DNA of 64,000 nt from Escherichia phage wV7: sequence record NC_019505.1; one strand, written 5' to 3'. The notes beneath the pieces are model-generated. The model saw only the letters and a list, made by a program, of their open reading frames with translations, was not told where the DNA came from and did no database searches. Below, piece after piece: positions 3,826-46,451 of the stretch. The number at the start of each line of letters is the position of its first letter. Within the stretch, counting starts at the first letter, position 1. Position numbers and translations under genes: made by a program.

Positions 3826-3928
3826 TGGGGAATTCTAGGGCAGGGAGGGGAAATCAAAGGATAGGATAATATATTATAAAGGGTAGAAACTAAATGATGT
3901 CTAGAGAGGCCTGGAAAGGCCTAGATAC

Positions 3929-3958
3929 CAAAAAGCCCCAACCTTTCGGCTAGGGCTA
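3929..3958 (-). terminator. rho-independent terminator-like hairpin with U-run (minus strand)
   Basis: GC-rich imperfect stem (GCCCCAACC/GGCTAGGGC) followed on minus strand by UUUUU. Confidence 0.45.
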
Positions 3959-3964
3959 AGAATG

Positions 3965-4438
3965 TTATTTGATTTGTTTAGCAGACCAAATGCGGTCTTT
4001 AATAATTTTTTGGATGTCTTCAACATACTCAAGAGAGTGAGCATGTGGATTATCTTTGAAACTATAAGCACGAGCTAGTTTTTGGCCTTCAGTTTTGATT
4101 ACTAAAAGCTCTTTAAGGATAGCTTCATATTTGGAGATAATTCCTTTAACAATATTTTTCTCTTGTGCGACTTTAGGATCTGCTTTAGGAGCAGGTTTAC
4201 CCGAAGCCTTTGCAAAAGCAGCGCCAGTAGCAACTAAACTTTTCCAGGCCATACTAACTGCATTTCCCGTAAATCCTTCCGCTTTCATGTCGCGTGCGAA
4301 CTGGAATCGCGATTCATCAGAAGCATCTTTATAAGAATATTTACCCGCTGCAATGGCTGCTTTTGCGACAGCTTGAATTTCGGTGCTAGATGCTTCATTT
4401 AACACCGCTTCATTTAAAAATTGAGTATATGATTTCAT
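3965..4438 (-). CDS. internal-protein-like head protein with capsid-targeting N-terminus
   Basis: N-terminus MKSYTQFLNEA resembles the T4 IPI/IPII/IPIII/Alt capsid targeting sequence, with L-x-E motifs typical of gp21 protease sites; preceded by a late promoter and flanked by hairpin terminators. Confidence 0.55.
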   Translation of the reverse strand: MKSYTQFLNEAVLNEASSTEIQAVAKAAIAAGKYSYKDASDESRFQFARDMKAEGFTGNAVSMAWKSLVATGAAFAKASGKPAPKADPKVAQEKNIVKGIISKYEAILKELLVIKTEGQKLARAYSFKDNPHAHSLEYVEDIQKIIKDRIWSAKQIK

Positions 4439-4478
4439 CTTATTTCCTGTTTTAATTCGTGGATTTAATATACTACTA

Positions 4479-4486
4479 TATTTATA
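4479..4486 (-). promoter_or_regulatory. T4 late promoter -10 element TATAAATA (minus strand)
   Basis: Exact TATAAATA about 40 nt upstream of ATG at 4438. Confidence 0.5.
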
Positions 4487-4520
4487 CCAAAAAGCCCCAA
4501 CCTTTCGGTCGGGGCTAAGC
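4487..4520 (-). terminator. rho-independent terminator (minus strand)
   Basis: Stem GCCCCGACC/GGTTGGGGC followed by UUUUU on minus-strand RNA. Confidence 0.5.
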
Positions 4521-4825
4521 CTTGCGGCAACCTTGTCGGGGTTCCACCTGCTAAGGCAAGTGTTTGTACGAAACGCCGGGATTCGAACCCGGTTATTAAG
4601 CAGTTGACGCTACTCAATATTTTTAAAAGGCCATATCTCGACCATATCCGAACGTTCCGTCAAAAACGCTACTCGGCTTACGGCAAAGATATTTCCTCGA
4701 ATCGATAATTCGGTGCGCCGTTTCTACTGTGATGTAAGAGGGCATCAATAAACGCAAAGATTATTAACGCAATTCCTTACTCAGGGAACATCAGTCCGAC
4801 GACTTACCGGTAGCGACCCGGTTTC
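4521..4825 (-). ncRNA. candidate small stable RNA locus (ORF-free, GC-richer, tRNA-like T-arm)
   Basis: No ORF of 60 aa or more on either strand; minus-strand CCGGG-TTCGAAT-CCCGG T-arm-like stem-loop at about 4575-4591; lies between tRNA-proximal ORF and a terminator. Confidence 0.3.
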
Positions 4826-5176
4826 TTAATATTCTTTTAAAGCATCAATCTGTTTACGGCGTTCACGCCATAAATCAATTGCTTCATACGCGGATTCAAC
4901 ATTTCGAATTGGACGGCATTTATATAAAGATTTGTGATTTTGATATTGCGTAGATAACGGAATTTTATCTAAAAGGTCTTTACGTTCAAAGTATTCGTAA
5001 CCATCTAAGCCAAATGAACGATTTTTGAGAAATTGCCAATGACCAAATTCGTTTTGAATATAAATATAATCCGCATGTTGATAAAGTAAATTAATTTCAC
5101 GAAATGAGATATGTTTTTCATATTCATTGAAGTAAAATGTTAAATCATGAACTACTAAATAAACATTACCTTTCAT
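4826..5176 (-). CDS. hypothetical protein
   Basis: 116 aa ATG-start ORF immediately downstream (in transcription sense) of tRNA-Arg. Confidence 0.5.
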   Translation of the reverse strand: MKGNVYLVVHDLTFYFNEYEKHISFREINLLYQHADYIYIQNEFGHWQFLKNRSFGLDGYEYFERKDLLDKIPLSTQYQNHKSLYKCRPIRNVESAYEAIDLWRERRKQIDALKEY

Positions 5177-5194: not shown

Positions 5195-5270
5195 TGGTCG
5201 AGGCAGTAGGGATCGAACCTACGACCTAGGACTTAGAAGGTCCTTGCTCTTCCTTCTGAGCTATGCCCCG
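5195..5270 (-). tRNA. tRNA-Arg (anticodon UCU)
   Basis: Hand-folded cloverleaf: acceptor CGGGGCA/TGCCTCG, anticodon loop CUUCUAA, T-loop TTCGATC, CCA encoded. Confidence 0.85.
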
Positions 5271-5274
5271 TAAT

Positions 5275-5350
5275 TGGGGTGACCGATGGGAGTCGAACCC
5301 ATGACTACGAGAATCACAATCTCGAGTTCTACCAACTGAACTACGGTCAC
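5275..5350 (-). tRNA. tRNA-His (anticodon GUG)
   Basis: Cloverleaf: acceptor GTGACCG/CGGTCAC, discriminator C, anticodon loop TTGTGAT, T-loop TTCGACT, CCA encoded; no G-1 encoded. Confidence 0.75.
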
Positions 5351-5464
5351 ATTAATACCTACTCCAACAATCAAGATGTCTTCACACGAAATTAAGAGAA
5401 GAGTGATCAGTTCAACCCCTATAATCGCGTCAAGTAGATATTAATGTGACAGTTGTCACAAATT

Positions 5465-5539
5465 TGGCGGACGTGATAGGATTCGAACCTATAACCAATC
5501 GCTTAACAGGCGATCGCTCTGCCATTGAGCTACACATCC
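5465..5539 (-). tRNA. tRNA-Asn (anticodon GUU)
   Basis: Cloverleaf: acceptor GGATGTG/CACGTCC, D-stem GCTC/GAGC, anticodon stem ATCGC/GCGAT with loop CTGTTAA, T-loop TTCGAAT, CCA encoded. Confidence 0.8.
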
Positions 5540-5543
5540 AAAT

Positions 5544-5630
5544 TGGTGGGGAGTGGTGGAGTCGAACCACCCGAGTCGCAATGACAATGAATTTACAGTC
5601 CACACCGCTACCTCTACGGGATAACTCCCC
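5544..5630 (-). tRNA. tRNA-Tyr (anticodon GUA), class II long variable arm
   Basis: 87 nt; acceptor GGGGAGT/ACTCCCC; anticodon loop CUGUAAA as in bacterial tRNA-Tyr; variable-arm hairpin; D-arm could not be resolved cleanly by hand. Confidence 0.6.
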
Positions 5631-5642
5631 TAATTCATAATT

Positions 5643-5717
5643 TGGTGGCCCTGGGTGGAATTGAACCACCATCTGGCGATTATGAGTCGCTTGCTTGAAC
5701 CTTCCAGCTACAGGGCC
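5643..5717 (-). tRNA. tRNA with CAU anticodon (Met, or Ile if lysidine-modified)
   Basis: Cloverleaf: acceptor GGCCCTG/CAGGGCC, anticodon loop CTCATAA, T-loop TTCAATT, CCA encoded; occupies the position of the T4 tRNA-Ile gene. Confidence 0.75.
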
Positions 5718-5718
5718 T

Positions 5719-5794
5719 TGGTGCTGATTGACGGAATCGAACCGCCGACCTTCTCATTACAAGTGAGTTGCTCTACCTACTGAGCTAAATCAGC
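5719..5794 (-). tRNA. tRNA-Thr (anticodon UGU)
   Basis: Cloverleaf: acceptor GCTGATT/AATCAGC, anticodon loop CTTGTAA, T-loop TTCGATT, CCA encoded. Confidence 0.8.
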
Positions 5795-5799
5795 AAAAC

Positions 5800-5889
5800 T
5801 GGCGGAGGTGATAGGATTCGAACCTATGAATCGCCGGAGCGACTGCCGGTTTTCAAGACCGGTGCATTCAACCACTCTGCCACACCTCC
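5800..5889 (-). tRNA. tRNA-Ser (anticodon UGA), class II
   Basis: 90 nt; acceptor GGAGGTG/CACCTCC, anticodon stem CCGGT/ACCGG with loop CTTGAAA, long variable arm, T-loop TTCGAAT. Confidence 0.8.
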
Positions 5890-5891
5890 AG

Positions 5892-5965
5892 TCTCCATAC
5901 AAGGATTTGAACCTTGGACCTCCTGATCCCAAATCAGGCGCTCTACCAAACTGAGCTACACGGAG
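5892..5965 (-). tRNA. tRNA-Pro (anticodon UGG), 3' CCA not encoded
   Basis: Acceptor CTCCGTG/TATGGAG, anticodon stem CCTGA/TCAGG with loop TTTGGGA, T-loop TTCAAAT; 3' end abuts tRNA-Ser 5' end with CU instead of CCA. Confidence 0.8.
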
Positions 5966-5975
5966 TAAATTAAAT

Positions 5976-6049
<74 letters not shown>

Positions 6050-6054
6050 AAATT

Positions 6055-6141
6055 TGGTGCGAGAAGTGGGACTCGAACCCACAAGGAAATCATTCCGCAG
6101 CATTTTAAGTGCTGTGCCTTTACCAATTTGACCATTCTCGC
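6055..6141 (-). tRNA. tRNA-Leu (anticodon UAA), class II
   Basis: 87 nt; acceptor GCGAGAA/TTCTCGC, anticodon stem CAGCA/TGCTG with loop CTTAAAA, long variable arm, T-loop TTCGAGT. Confidence 0.8.
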
Positions 6142-6142
6142 G

Positions 6143-6215
6143 CTGGGAATAAAGGACTCGAACCTTTGCATCTAGCAGTCAAAGTGCTATGCCTTACCAA
6201 CTTGGCTAATTCCCA
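6143..6215 (-). tRNA. tRNA-Gln (anticodon UUG), 3' CCA not encoded
   Basis: Acceptor TGGGAAT/ATTCCCA, anticodon stem TAGCA/TGCTA with loop CTTTGAC, T-loop TTCGAGT; one nucleotide separates it from tRNA-Leu (dimeric precursor arrangement). Confidence 0.8.
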
Positions 6216-7194: not shown

Positions 7195-7252
7195 GGTAAT
7201 AGTATCACTACTAAAACCCCGTGTAAACAACTTTGTGAAATTATTTTAAATC
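7195..7252 (-). promoter_or_regulatory. T4 early-type promoter (-35 GTTTAC, -10 TACTAT)
   Basis: Minus-strand GATTTAAAATAATTTCACAAAGTTGTTTAC-N18-TACTAT; 32 nt core identical to the copy at 7553-7584. Confidence 0.5.
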
Positions 7253-7498
7253 TTCTAATCGTTTCTTCATCTTAGAACCATTTTTAGCGATTTCTCCTGC
7301 GTCAGAGCATAATGCTAAAAGTGCTTTAACTTTAGTTTGGTCTCCTTTAAAAGACGAAGGATCGACTGCAGCAGCAAGTTCTTTAATACGAGAGAAAAGA
7401 CGCTCAGCTTCAGCTAAAGCCATTCCAAGCTTTACTTCCATACCATGAGAAGATTCAGTGATAATAGTTTCTGTAGCAAACTCTTTATAAGTTTTCAT
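7241..7498 (-). CDS. internal protein I-like head protein (capsid-targeting N-terminus)
   Basis: N-terminus MKTYKEFATETIITE resembles the T4 internal-protein CTS (MKTYQEF...), with I-x-E motif; 85 aa; positioned where ipI lies in T4 (downstream of 57B). Confidence 0.6.
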   Translation of the reverse strand: MKTYKEFATETIITESSHGMEVKLGMALAEAERLFSRIKELAAAVDPSSFKGDQTKVKALLALCSDAGEIAKNGSKMKKRLEDLK

Positions 7499-35811: not shown

Positions 35812-35812
<1 letters not shown>

Positions 35813-36048
35813 TGGAAGGTTTAATTGAAGCTATTAAATCAAACGACCTCGTAGCCGCTCGTAAATTATTTGCTGAAGCCATGGCTGCAAGAACGACTGA
35901 TTTAATCAAAGAAGAAAAAATCACTATCGCTCGTAATTTCTTAATCGAGGGTGAAGAACCTGATGACGAGGATGACGACGAAGATAGCGATGATGATAAA
36001 GACGACAAAAAAGACAAAGACTCTGATGAAGACGAGGATGATGAATAA
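35812..36048 (+). CDS. 67: gp67 prohead core protein
   Basis: 78 aa with highly acidic C-terminus ([15 protein letters not shown]...), TAATG overlap with gene 20. Confidence 0.85.
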
Positions 36049-36473
36049 TGATTCTAATCCCTGAAACTCATGAATTAGTTCTCGAGAATGTCGAAGCACT
36101 TATTCCTGAAGCACAGGGTCGCTTTGACGAGTTGTCTTCTGCTTTAAATAAAGACGATATAAATAAAATTATCGAGAATATGCTTGATGATGAAACTGAT
36201 TTAGCGGTTGCATTAGCTTCTATTAATGAAAATATGCCGTTAAATGAATTTATCGTTAAACATGTTTCTGCCCGTGGTGAAATTACTCGCACTAAAGATC
36301 GCAAAACCCGCGAACGTAATGCATTTCAAACTACCGGGTTGTCTAAAGCAAAACGTAGACAAATTGCTCGTAAAGCTACCAAAACGAAGATTGCCAATCC
36401 AGCAGGTCAATCTCGTGCTCAGCGTAAGCGTAAAAAAGCTCTTAAACGCCGTAAAGCATTAGGATTAAGCTAA
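36048..36473 (+). CDS. 68: gp68 prohead core protein
   Basis: 141 aa with basic C-terminus, T4 order. Confidence 0.85.
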
Positions 36474-37111
36474 TGAATGAACCCCAATTGCTAATTGAAA
36501 CTTGGGGTCAACCTGGCGAAATTATTGATGGTGTGCCAATGCTTGAATCCCATGATGGGAAAGACTTAGGTTTAAAACCTGGTTTATACATCGAAGGAAT
36601 ATTCATGCAAGCAGAAGTCGTCAATAGAAATAAACGTCTTTATCCAAAACGTATATTAGAAAAAGCGGTAAAAGACTATATTAATGAGCAAGTTTTAACT
36701 AAACAAGCTCTCGGAGAATTAAATCATCCTCCACGCGCTAATGTTGACCCGATGCAAGCCGCTATCATTATAGAAGATATGTGGTGGAAAGGAAATGACG
36801 TATACGGACGAGCTCGTGTTATTGAAGGTGACCATGGTCCTGGAGATAAATTAGCAGCTAATATTCGTGCCGGATGGATTCCAGGAGTTTCTTCTCGTGG
36901 ATTAGGTTCATTGACTGACACAAATAAAGGTTATCGTATCGTAAACGAAGGATTCAAATTAACTGTAGGTGTTGATGCAGTATGGGGTCCAAGTGCTCCA
37001 GATGCATGGGTAACTCCTAAGGAAATTACAGAATCACAGACGGCGGAAGCCGATACAAGTGCCGATGACGCCTATATGGCTCTCGCAGAGGCCATGAAAA
37101 AAGCGTTATAA
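36473..37111 (+). CDS. 21: gp21 prohead core scaffold protein and maturation protease
   Basis: 212 aa, T4 length and order. Confidence 0.9.
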   Translation: MNEPQLLIETWGQPGEIIDGVPMLESHDGKDLGLKPGLYIEGIFMQAEVVNRNKRLYPKRILEKAVKDYINEQVLTKQALGELNHPPRANVDPMQAAIIIEDMWWKGNDVYGRARVIEGDHGPGDKLAANIRAGWIPGVSSRGLGSLTDTNKGYRIVNEGFKLTVGVDAVWGPSAPDAWVTPKEITESQTAEADTSADDAYMALAEAMKKAL

Positions 37112-37113
37112 AT
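37106..37113 (+). promoter_or_regulatory. late promoter TATAAATA
   Basis: Exact match 28 nt upstream of gene 22 ATG. Confidence 0.5.
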
Positions 37114-37141
37114 ATTATTATCTAAACAACAGGACTACAAA

Positions 37142-37951
37142 ATGCTTAAAGAACAACTGATTGCCGAAGCGCAGAAAATTGATGCTTCCGTTGCTCTTGA
37201 TAGTATTTTCGAATCAGTTAATATTTCTCCGGAAGCAAAAGAAACTTTCGGCACTGTATTCGAAGCTACCGTCAAGCAGCACGCCGTTAAATTAGCTGAA
37301 TCTCATATCGCTAAAATTGCTGAAAAAGCAGAAGAAGAAGTAGAAAAAAATAAAGAAGAAGCAGAAGAAAAAGCTGAGAAGAAAATCGCTGAGCAAGCTT
37401 CTAAATTCCTTGACCATCTTGCAAAAGAATGGCTCACTGAAAATAAATTAGCAGTAGATAAAGGTATCAAAGCCGAACTGTTTGAATCCATGCTTGGTGG
37501 ATTGAAAGAGCTCTTCGTTGAACACAACGTTGTTGTTCCAGAAGAATCAGTTGATGTTGTAGCTGAAATGGAAGAAGAACTGCAAGAACATAAAGAAGAA
37601 TCAGCTCGTCTGTTCGAAGAACTCAATAAGCGTGACGCATATATCAATTATGTGCAGCGTGAAGTGGCATTGAGCGAAAGTACTAAAGATCTGACTGAGT
37701 CTCAAAAAGAAAAAGTCTCTGCTCTGGTCGAAGGTATTGATTATTCAGATGCATTCTCAAGCAAATTGAGTGCCATCGTAGAAATGGTGAAGAAATCTAA
37801 TAAAGATGAAAGCACTATTACTGAGAGTATAAATACTCCTGATACTGAAGCAGCCGGACTGAATTTCGTCACTGAAGCTGTAGAAGATAAATCTGCACAA
37901 GGTGCAGAAGATATTGTAAGTGTATATGCGAAAGTCGCATCTCGTTTCTAA
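37142..37951 (+). CDS. 22: gp22 prohead core scaffold protein
   Basis: 269 aa, acidic coiled-coil, T4 order. Confidence 0.9.
   Translation: MLKEQLIAEAQKIDASVALDSIFESVNISPEAKETFGTVFEATVKQHAVKLAESHIAKIAEKAEEEVEKNKEEAEEKAEKKIAEQASKFLDHLAKEWLTENKLAVDKGIKAELFESMLGGLKELFVEHNVVVPEESVDVVAEMEEELQEHKEESARLFEELNKRDAYINYVQREVALSESTKDLTESQKEKVSALVEGIDYSDAFSSKLSAIVEMVKKSNKDESTITESINTPDTEAAGLNFVTEAVEDKSAQGAEDIVSVYAKVASRF
37828..37835 (+). promoter_or_regulatory. late promoter TATAAATA inside 3' end of gene 22 (candidate P23)
   Basis: Exact TATAAATA about 135 nt upstream of gene 23 ATG, within gene 22 coding sequence. Confidence 0.4.
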
Positions 37952-46217: not shown

Positions 46218-46451
46218 ATGTTACTAGAATTTAAACAATTTCTTTATGAAGCTTCTATTGATGAATTTATGGGTAAAATTGCCTCTTGCCAAACGATAGA
46301 AGGTTTAGAAGAACTTGAAGCTTATTATAAGAAAAGAGTTAAAGAAACTGAATTAAAAGATACTGATGACATCTCTGTGAGAGATGCTTTGGCAGGAAAA
46401 AGAGCTGAATTAGAAGATTCAGACGATGATGAAGTAGAAGAAAGCTTTTAA
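46218..46451 (+). CDS. uvsW.1: UvsW.1-like small acidic protein
   Basis: ATG at 46218 preceded by GGAGAAAAAG gives 77 aa; track start is TTG. Confidence 0.6.
   Translation: MLLEFKQFLYEASIDEFMGKIASCQTIEGLEELEAYYKKRVKETELKDTDDISVRDALAGKRAELEDSDDDEVEESF

Follow-up and report, generated by a model that had tools for sequence, protein, structure and literature searches.

An open reading frame (ORF) on the minus strand of Escherichia phage wV7 probably encodes an internal protein, packaged in the head and injected into the host, that has so far gone unnamed in T4-like phages. The DNA analysed is a stretch of 64,000 nucleotides of this phage (sequence record NC_019505.1), hereafter the window. A preliminary description of its sequence had drawn attention to a 157-amino-acid product starting MKSYTQFLNEA, leaving the strand unstated, and to its likeness to the T4 internal proteins (IPs or Ips, encoded by ip genes). 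The ORF was located at 3965..4438 (-), with the start read from the window sequence as MKSYTQFLNEAVLNEASS, and corresponds to RB32ORF132c. Internal proteins defined by a targeting signal have been known since the 1990s and are the first phage proteins in the host cytoplasm; since the class is long known, what is new here is a family and a third locus within it.

The N-terminus carries much of the case for this assignment. In T4 IPs a capsid targeting sequence of 10 residues suffices for packaging. Mutagenesis (Mullaney & Black 1996, as summarised in PMC9026906) attributed targeting to residues 4 and 7 and processing to residues 8 and 10, and the protease gp21 cleaves after L/I-x-E, classically at a Glu-Ala bond (PMC9026906). 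The N-terminus of the wV7 product, MKSYTQFLNE/AVLNE/A (slashes denote gp21-type sites), contains all four determinants, namely Y4 and F7 for targeting and L8 and E10 for processing, so that the resemblance to T4 targeting sequences previously suggested is found at exactly these positions. The signal agrees there with IPII/IPIII (MKTYQEFIAE/A) and T2 Ip7 (MKTFKEFINE/A); the comparison also included IPI (MKTFKEFTSTTTPVSTITE/A) and RB51/T2 Ip4 (MKTYQEFITE/A). The L-x-E motifs pointed out earlier fall, as [LIV]-x-E sites, at residues 8-10, 13-15 and 108-110, of which the first two are the gp21-type sites L8-N9-E10/A11 and L13-N14-E15/A16. The second of these stems from an 11-nucleotide (nt) exact repeat, TTAAATGAAGC, with a 15-nt period (window 4392-4417, minus strand), by which (F/V)LNEA is duplicated; the homologs P0004 and P0005 and those of Mosigvirus and Dhakavirus have a single cleavage site. 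Predicted tryptic peptides would be SYTQFLNEAVLNEASSTEIQAVAK for an unprocessed N-terminus, AVLNEASSTEIQAVAK for a product starting at A11 and ASSTEIQAVAK for one starting at A16.

A strict form of the signal, MK[ST][YF]..F, scored on the starts of ATG-initiated ORFs, matched two of 564 starts in the window, the gene studied here and Ip5. In the RB51 genome it matched four of ~1720, namely Ip4, Ip5, the RB51 counterpart of the gene and gp61.1, so that in this genome the motif is nearly exclusive to known ip genes. The gp61.1 gene (RB51 FJ839693 17751-17915, minus strand) lies in the early gene-61 region and encodes 54 amino acids starting MKTYKEFIKED (PHROG 1823, unknown function). The machinery that would read such a signal (gp21, gp22, gp67 and gp68) is encoded within the window.

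The gene forms an insulated transcription unit, with its own late promoter and with hairpin terminators on both sides, as the preliminary description had it. The promoter is an exact match to the T4-type late sequence TATAAATA, ending 40 nt before the ATG; the window contains 23 copies of this sequence against 9.2 +/- 2.8 expected. No sigma-70-like promoter match was found by promoter scan between the upstream terminator and the ATG (4439-4520). A terminator scan identified G+C-rich hairpins of 10 pairs followed by a T-run at 4516-4493 and 3957-3934 on the minus strand, with folding energies of -21.6 and -18.5 kcal/mol (z -3.8 and -3.7) for the upstream and downstream copy, respectively. Each hairpin is part of a 36-nt direct repeat whose two copies are 92% identical and have no further copy in the window, and the upstream repeat runs into the first bases of the late promoter (GGTAT/AAATA). 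Just 3' of the cassette terminator lies a palindrome, GGCCTGGAAAGGCC (window 3908-3924), of which the T4 version is imperfect (AAGCCTTTCCAGACC). Coordinates are collected in Table 1.

Table 1. Features of the cassette and related genes in the window
Feature	Position	Strand	Remarks
Coding sequence	3965..4438	-	157 aa, 17.3 kDa, isoelectric point (pI) 9.5; = RB32ORF132c / RB51ORF140 / fD1 g140; PHROG 2280
Late promoter, T4-type	4479..4486	-	TATAAATA, exact match
Upstream 36-nt direct repeat copy	4484..4519	-	Holds rho-independent terminator: stem-loop 4493-4516 and T-run
Downstream 36-nt repeat copy, cassette terminator	3925..3960	-	Stem-loop 3934-3957 and T-run
Shine-Dalgarno AGGA	4445..4448	-	7-10 nt 5' of ATG, direct reading
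Putative propeptide / capsid targeting sequence	4394..4438	-	MKSYTQFLNE/AVLNE/; two L-N-E gp21 sites
Predicted mature protein	3968..4393	-	~142 aa; helical domain 18-75, Lys/Pro/Ala linker 76-87, helical hairpin 88-155
rnaC homolog	4567..4705	-	Last gene of upstream operon; approximate limits, from alignment to T4 annotation
Ip5	7241..7498	-	Annotated internal protein at classical ipI locus; only other window ORF with strict targeting motif
gp21 prohead protease (Peptidase_S77)	36473..37111	+	Enzyme expected to remove propeptide; Pfam E 1.5e-111
Core genes gp67, gp68, gp22	35812-37951		GP67 and T4_CASP (gp22) domain matches

The window belongs to a Tequatrovirus of the RB51/RB68 type; across 3860-4560 (701 bases) its identity is 100% with E. 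coli O157 typing phage 7 and 99.6% with RB51 and RB68. The RB51 annotation names the gene RB32ORF132c and describes a hypothetical protein with a 34 bp imperfect direct repeat on its flanks. Upstream on the transcribed strand lies an early/middle operon of ten tRNA genes and homologs of rnaD and rnaC, which were placed by alignment to T4 because Rfam has no model for either; the downstream neighbour, e.8, has its own early-type promoter. The picture of a self-contained cassette within a block of early genes was borne out. Relative to T4, the cassette is a clean 559-bp indel with the same flanks and a junction inside the repeat (T4 ...GGGGCTTTTTGGTAT/CTAAGCC versus window ...GGTAT/AAATATAG...ORF...GGTAT/CTAGGCC). 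In T4, T2 and T6 the site is empty and a single terminator copy, equivalent to the upstream one, is present. The upstream hairpin is therefore the terminator of the tRNA/rnaC operon, and what makes up the cassette is a late promoter, the ORF and a duplicate of this operon terminator. The gene is also absent from SHFML-11 and HEMP5.

Three further observations concern this operon. A 116-amino-acid ORF similar to RB51ncORF141c / RB69ORF150c (4826-5176, minus strand) separates rnaD from the tRNA genes. Their cluster (5198-6215, minus strand) consists of ten contiguous tRNA genes and, unlike that of T4 and RB51, has no segB ORF. In a public assembly, a 94-amino-acid protein (P0013) starts with the N-terminal part of tRNA.3 and ends with the C-terminal ~32 residues of the RB32ORF132c product, joining window ~6700 to ~4060; this chimera implies a natural deletion in which all of the tRNA cluster, rnaC/rnaD and the cassette's 5' part would have been lost.

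The protein family is narrow, with 13 matches among 5.8 billion clustered proteins, and an exhaustive hidden Markov model search of 1.84 billion representatives returned 13 proteins, none with an annotation. All traceable sources are T4-like phages. By tblastn, 510 phage records were positive for the family, and the rnaC-terminator region was present in 684 records; carriers include BASEL and therapeutic isolates, and the gene occurs in most Tequatrovirus isolates, whereas the laboratory T-evens lack it. Every one of the more than 400 cluster members read from public sources bears the name hypothetical protein, and PHROG 2280 is listed as 'unknown function'. In an alignment of 12 members extending down to 24% identity, M1 and F7 were invariant, L8 was nearly so and position 4 was Y or F; F7 and L8 rank among the most conserved residues of the family, and the L-x-E after F7 is kept despite 24-30% identity between divergent members.

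Fourteen loci from seven lineages were read: Tequatrovirus, Mosigvirus PhAPEC2, Dhakavirus WG01, Jiaodavirus phiKp_22, Muldoonvirus VP8, Serratia phage 4S and Yersinia phage fHe-Yen9-01. In all 14 a terminator comes first, then a late promoter, then one or two ORFs bearing the signal, then a second terminator. The promoter lies 26-40 nt 5' of the first ATG in every locus and is an exact TATAAATA in 12; both PhAPEC2 cassettes are preceded by AATAAATA, and every cassette or operon has a terminator after it. The earlier view of the product as a divergent member of the internal proteins is in keeping with a signal retained while the mature part falls to 24% identity, and with a late promoter and terminators retained in all seven lineages.

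Several of these loci carry a second, unrelated ORF with the same signal. An RB69ORF149c-like cassette, encoding 187-189 amino acids, stands in tandem with the homolog of the wV7 gene in Mosigvirus, some Tequatrovirus and Yersinia phage fHe-Yen9-01 (locus L006 3089-3652, PhAPEC2_133; L013 2100-2663; L018 922-1491). Of the 165 phage records with the RB69ORF149c-like protein, 164 show at least 95% identity to the copy of Mosigvirus PhAPEC2, most of them from non-Mosigvirus phages (for example, RB14, pSs-1 and fPS-65). The adjacent homolog is only ~76% identical; this difference suggests that the cassette may have been exchanged laterally in recent times. Phages VP8 and 4S have small ORFs of 70-72 amino acids directly 3' of the late promoter (L011 1286-1504 and L012 1289-1501, respectively), with signal-like N-termini (MKSFTEFLTE/S and MNFKDFVNE/S; MKSFTEFLTESADLTLTEA / MNFKDFVNESLELVLEA) and a stop codon that overlaps the start of the family member; neither gave a PHROG match. 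In Dhakavirus WG01 the cassette is followed by an unrelated ORF of 184 amino acids with a hydrophobic N-terminus (L020 2275-2829) and then by a further terminator copy; as this ORF has no signal, the locus also takes cargo lacking it. The 36-nt repeat is present in two copies in the window and in three of the four two-cassette relatives (one copy was found in the fourth, L018), and in one copy at empty sites. The preliminary description had proposed a comparison with internal-protein loci of other T-even phages; the two classical loci lie elsewhere, and the site from rnaC to e.8 appears to be a third ip locus, distinct from the two in T4, holding zero, one or two cassettes and behaving as would be expected of an ip locus.

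Virion proteomics, the other check proposed, is available for an ortholog. Gene g140 of Yersinia phage fD1 (phiD1; 67942-68415, 157 amino acids) encodes a protein 98.7% identical to that of wV7, and liquid chromatography-tandem mass spectrometry of purified fD1 virions detected it as particle-associated at the strict threshold (PMC8309999, Table S3; public data set PXD026812). The fD1 homologs of head and internal proteins, g129 (Ip4) and g146, were likewise in the particle list; the products of g139 (e.8), g138 and g133-135 were not detected in virions (PMC8309999, Table S3). We regard the detection of g140 as supportive rather than decisive.

After cleavage, the product would comprise 142-147 amino acids with a mass of ~15.5-16 kDa, a pI of ~9.6 and 20 lysines. 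AlphaFold models (predicted local distance difference test scores of 72 and 79) are all-helical. The compact, conserved domain at residues 18-75 has invariant F47, G55, K66, S67 and F75 and a nearly invariant W65. Residues 88-155 are predicted to form a long helical hairpin, the sequence of which is swapped in the Klebsiella, Yersinia and Serratia lineages, and the Lys/Pro/Ala linker between the two grows into AKP-like repeats in Serratia phage 4S. As to the homology search suggested earlier for the part after the cleavage site, Pfam and NCBIfam scans gave no significant family. The only profile match in PDB, to a designer pentatricopeptide repeat protein, contained no individually significant stretch and was rejected as an artefact of repeat summation.

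Several points weigh against an internal protein with the usual function. The fD1 preparation was impure: positive scores went to 113 of 277 phage products (41%), including DenV, lysozyme and NudE, and 672 host proteins were also present (PMC8309999), and given this rate of positives the detection of g140 carries a likelihood ratio of only ~2. A looser version of the motif also picks UvsW.1 (Pfam PF11637; window 46218-46451, plus strand; start MLLEFKQFLYEAS), which has an L-x-E/A and is no known head protein, so a short N-terminal likeness can arise by chance and the short motif alone is no proof. The UvsW.1 match is probably such a chance look-alike, and relaxed motifs alone should be used with caution in naming internal proteins. 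(The Pfam match rules out gp67 as the identity of this ORF, MLLEFKQFLYEA, which the loose motif picked falsely.) The mature part resembles no Ip and no known anti-restriction protein, fold searches were uninformative, and the all-helical fold predicted is unlike that of IPI*, which has two beta sheets flanked by helices. T4 ipI, ipII and ipIII and the window Ip5 have early-type GTTTACA promoters and no exact TATAAATA within 130 nt, so the expression pattern of the wV7 gene differs from that of classical members. Finally, N-terminal processing and injection, like an anti-defence function, are steps that we infer.

As to function, all three T4 Ips (Ip1-Ip3) inhibit distinct GmrSD Type IV restriction enzymes, and no GmrSD targets were found for ip4-10 (Silas et al. 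2025). The latter result makes it unsafe to take every Ip for a GmrSD inhibitor and is to be set with the points above. If the wV7 product is an internal protein, anti-restriction is by analogy its most likely function, though at somewhat less than even chances. The alternative that survives best is that the protein is packaged but neutralises charge, condenses DNA, assists ejection or has some other structural or DNA-handling role, with no part in anti-defence. We consider this unlikely, though not negligible. The protein is basic and rich in lysine, its linker expands to repeats in 4S, and IP lysines contact DNA phosphates in T4 as seen by solid-state nuclear magnetic resonance; conservation of the N-terminal domain across phages of different hosts fits a host-independent role better than an arms race, and ip4-10 are without identified defence targets. 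However, the gene is dispensable and absent from T4, T2, T6 and others, the three T4 Ips characterised functionally are all specific defence inhibitors, and the C-terminal half is swapped between lineages as for a specificity module.

Whether the protein is packaged at all bears on a second alternative, in which it would be a late non-packaged protein, its N-terminal likeness due to chance or a relic of recombination and its detection in virions due to contamination. The shortness of the motif, the loose UvsW.1 match and the many non-structural and host proteins in the fD1 preparation all speak for this, yet within a highly divergent family nothing is better conserved than the determinant residues, the same signal is borne by neighbouring ORFs of unrelated sequence at the locus, and the strict motif otherwise marks only ip genes and gp61.1; we consider this explanation improbable. 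Slightly less probable again is a prohead-core accessory protein resembling gp67/gp68, targeted to the core, cleaved by gp21 and degraded or expelled at maturation rather than delivered, for although the helical, coiled-coil-like hairpin recalls scaffold proteins and a third L-x-E site exists at residues 108-110, that site falls within a long helix predicted with confidence and distant members do not conserve it, the fD1 ortholog was found in mature virions at the strict threshold, and the gene is non-essential and variably present, unlike those of core assembly proteins.

An internal protein expressed from this cassette would probably act as follows. The tRNA/rnaC operon terminator would block early read-through, the consensus gp55-type late promoter would fire right after it and the duplicated terminator would end the transcript, giving late-only transcription. 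Through its N-terminal 10-15 residues, acting as the capsid targeting sequence, the protein would enter the prohead scaffolding core, where gp21 would cut after L-N-E10 and/or L-N-E15, and the basic, all-helical product of ~15.5-16 kDa would stay in the head with the DNA and be ejected into the next host. On arrival it may, by analogy with T4 Ip1-3, neutralise a specific host defence acting on glucosyl-hydroxymethylcytosine DNA (RB51-type phages carry glucosyltransferases), the most plausible target being a GmrSD-type Type IV restriction enzyme. The conserved N-terminal domain and the Lys/Pro/Ala linker could have a shared function, for example, DNA association, and the lineage-variable C-terminal hairpin could determine target specificity. 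Members of the family stand at this site in seven lineages, so it is more parsimonious to suppose that the cassette was there ancestrally and that T4, T2 and T6 lost it, presumably through recombination between the flanking terminator copies. A broader proposal, which we offer only tentatively and as unlikely in its entirety, is that rnaC-to-e.8 is a dedicated late 'injection cargo' locus, retained by seven or more T4-like lineages, whose cassettes are gained, lost and swapped via the terminator repeats, with the RB32ORF132c family inhibiting an orphan GmrSD clade or another DNA-targeting defence, its N-terminal domain serving delivery or DNA association and its C-terminal hairpin specificity.

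Five further GmrSD clades active against T-even phages have no inhibitor among ip1-10 (2025 study), and the wV7 protein, the RB69ORF149c-like family and the small ORFs of VP8 and 4S are new candidates for them. The gene is absent from T2, T4 and T6, the phages behind Ip biology, and is 'hypothetical' in every source. Its recognition as signal-tagged cargo would improve the annotation of hundreds of genomes. The locus also offers a natural late-expressed, terminator-insulated slot for engineering packaged payloads.

No mention of RB32ORF132c, RB69ORF149c or ip4/ip5 was found in searchable papers, internal proteins are not discussed by Petrov et al. 2010, and the supplement of the 2025 study of Ips against GmrSD, which gives no Ip sequences, contained no string from the wV7 protein. 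Among known systems, the closest are IPI-III of T4 and Ip4-Ip10 of the T-even phages. Like theirs, the targeting sequence of the wV7 product holds those determinant residues together with an L/I-x-E/A gp21 site. It is small and basic (pI 9.5, 20 Lys), T4 IPs having been described as 'highly basic', and its gene is non-essential and varies in presence between close relatives. The mature part bears no relation to other Ips, as is the rule in this class, and an ortholog was detected in the fD1 virion preparation. It differs from the T4 Ips in its locus, which extends from rnaC to e.8 (classically 57B to tRNA.4 and the denV/e region), in its late promoter as sole promoter and its insulation by terminators (ipI, ipII and ipIII being preceded by early-type promoters), in its duplicated cleavage site, in its assignment to PHROG 2280 (named Ips are in PHROGs 4363, 7857, 5341, 3155 and 3499) and in its predicted all-helical fold compared with the fold described for IPI*.

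The arrangement of the cassette recalls the PeSL cassettes of RB49/phi1 (Arbiol et al. 2010, PMC2839356), in which a promoter and stem-loop are repeated around a single non-essential ORF in a hyperplastic region. Presence/absence polymorphism with break-points inside the repeat is common to both and fits repeat-mediated modular shuffling. The promoter in wV7 is, however, the late TATAAATA, whereas that of PeSL is early and sigma-70-like, and the repeat is confined to one locus, whereas PeSL copies are dispersed in hyperplastic regions. As no copy of the 36-nt repeat was found in other RB51 segments and copies occur at this locus only, a dispersed PeSL-like mobile element was rejected. A further parallel is the cassette of the RB69ORF149c-like proteins (PhAPEC2_133, RB14ORF136), which are also in PHROG 2280 and annotated as hypothetical. 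Their sequence differs, being 187 amino acids long, known from 165 records compared with 510 for the RB32ORF132c family and alignable with the wV7 product by BLASTP over residues 1-11 only (MKTYAEFLTE/A); the locus, the late promoter, the signal and a terminator of their own are held in common.

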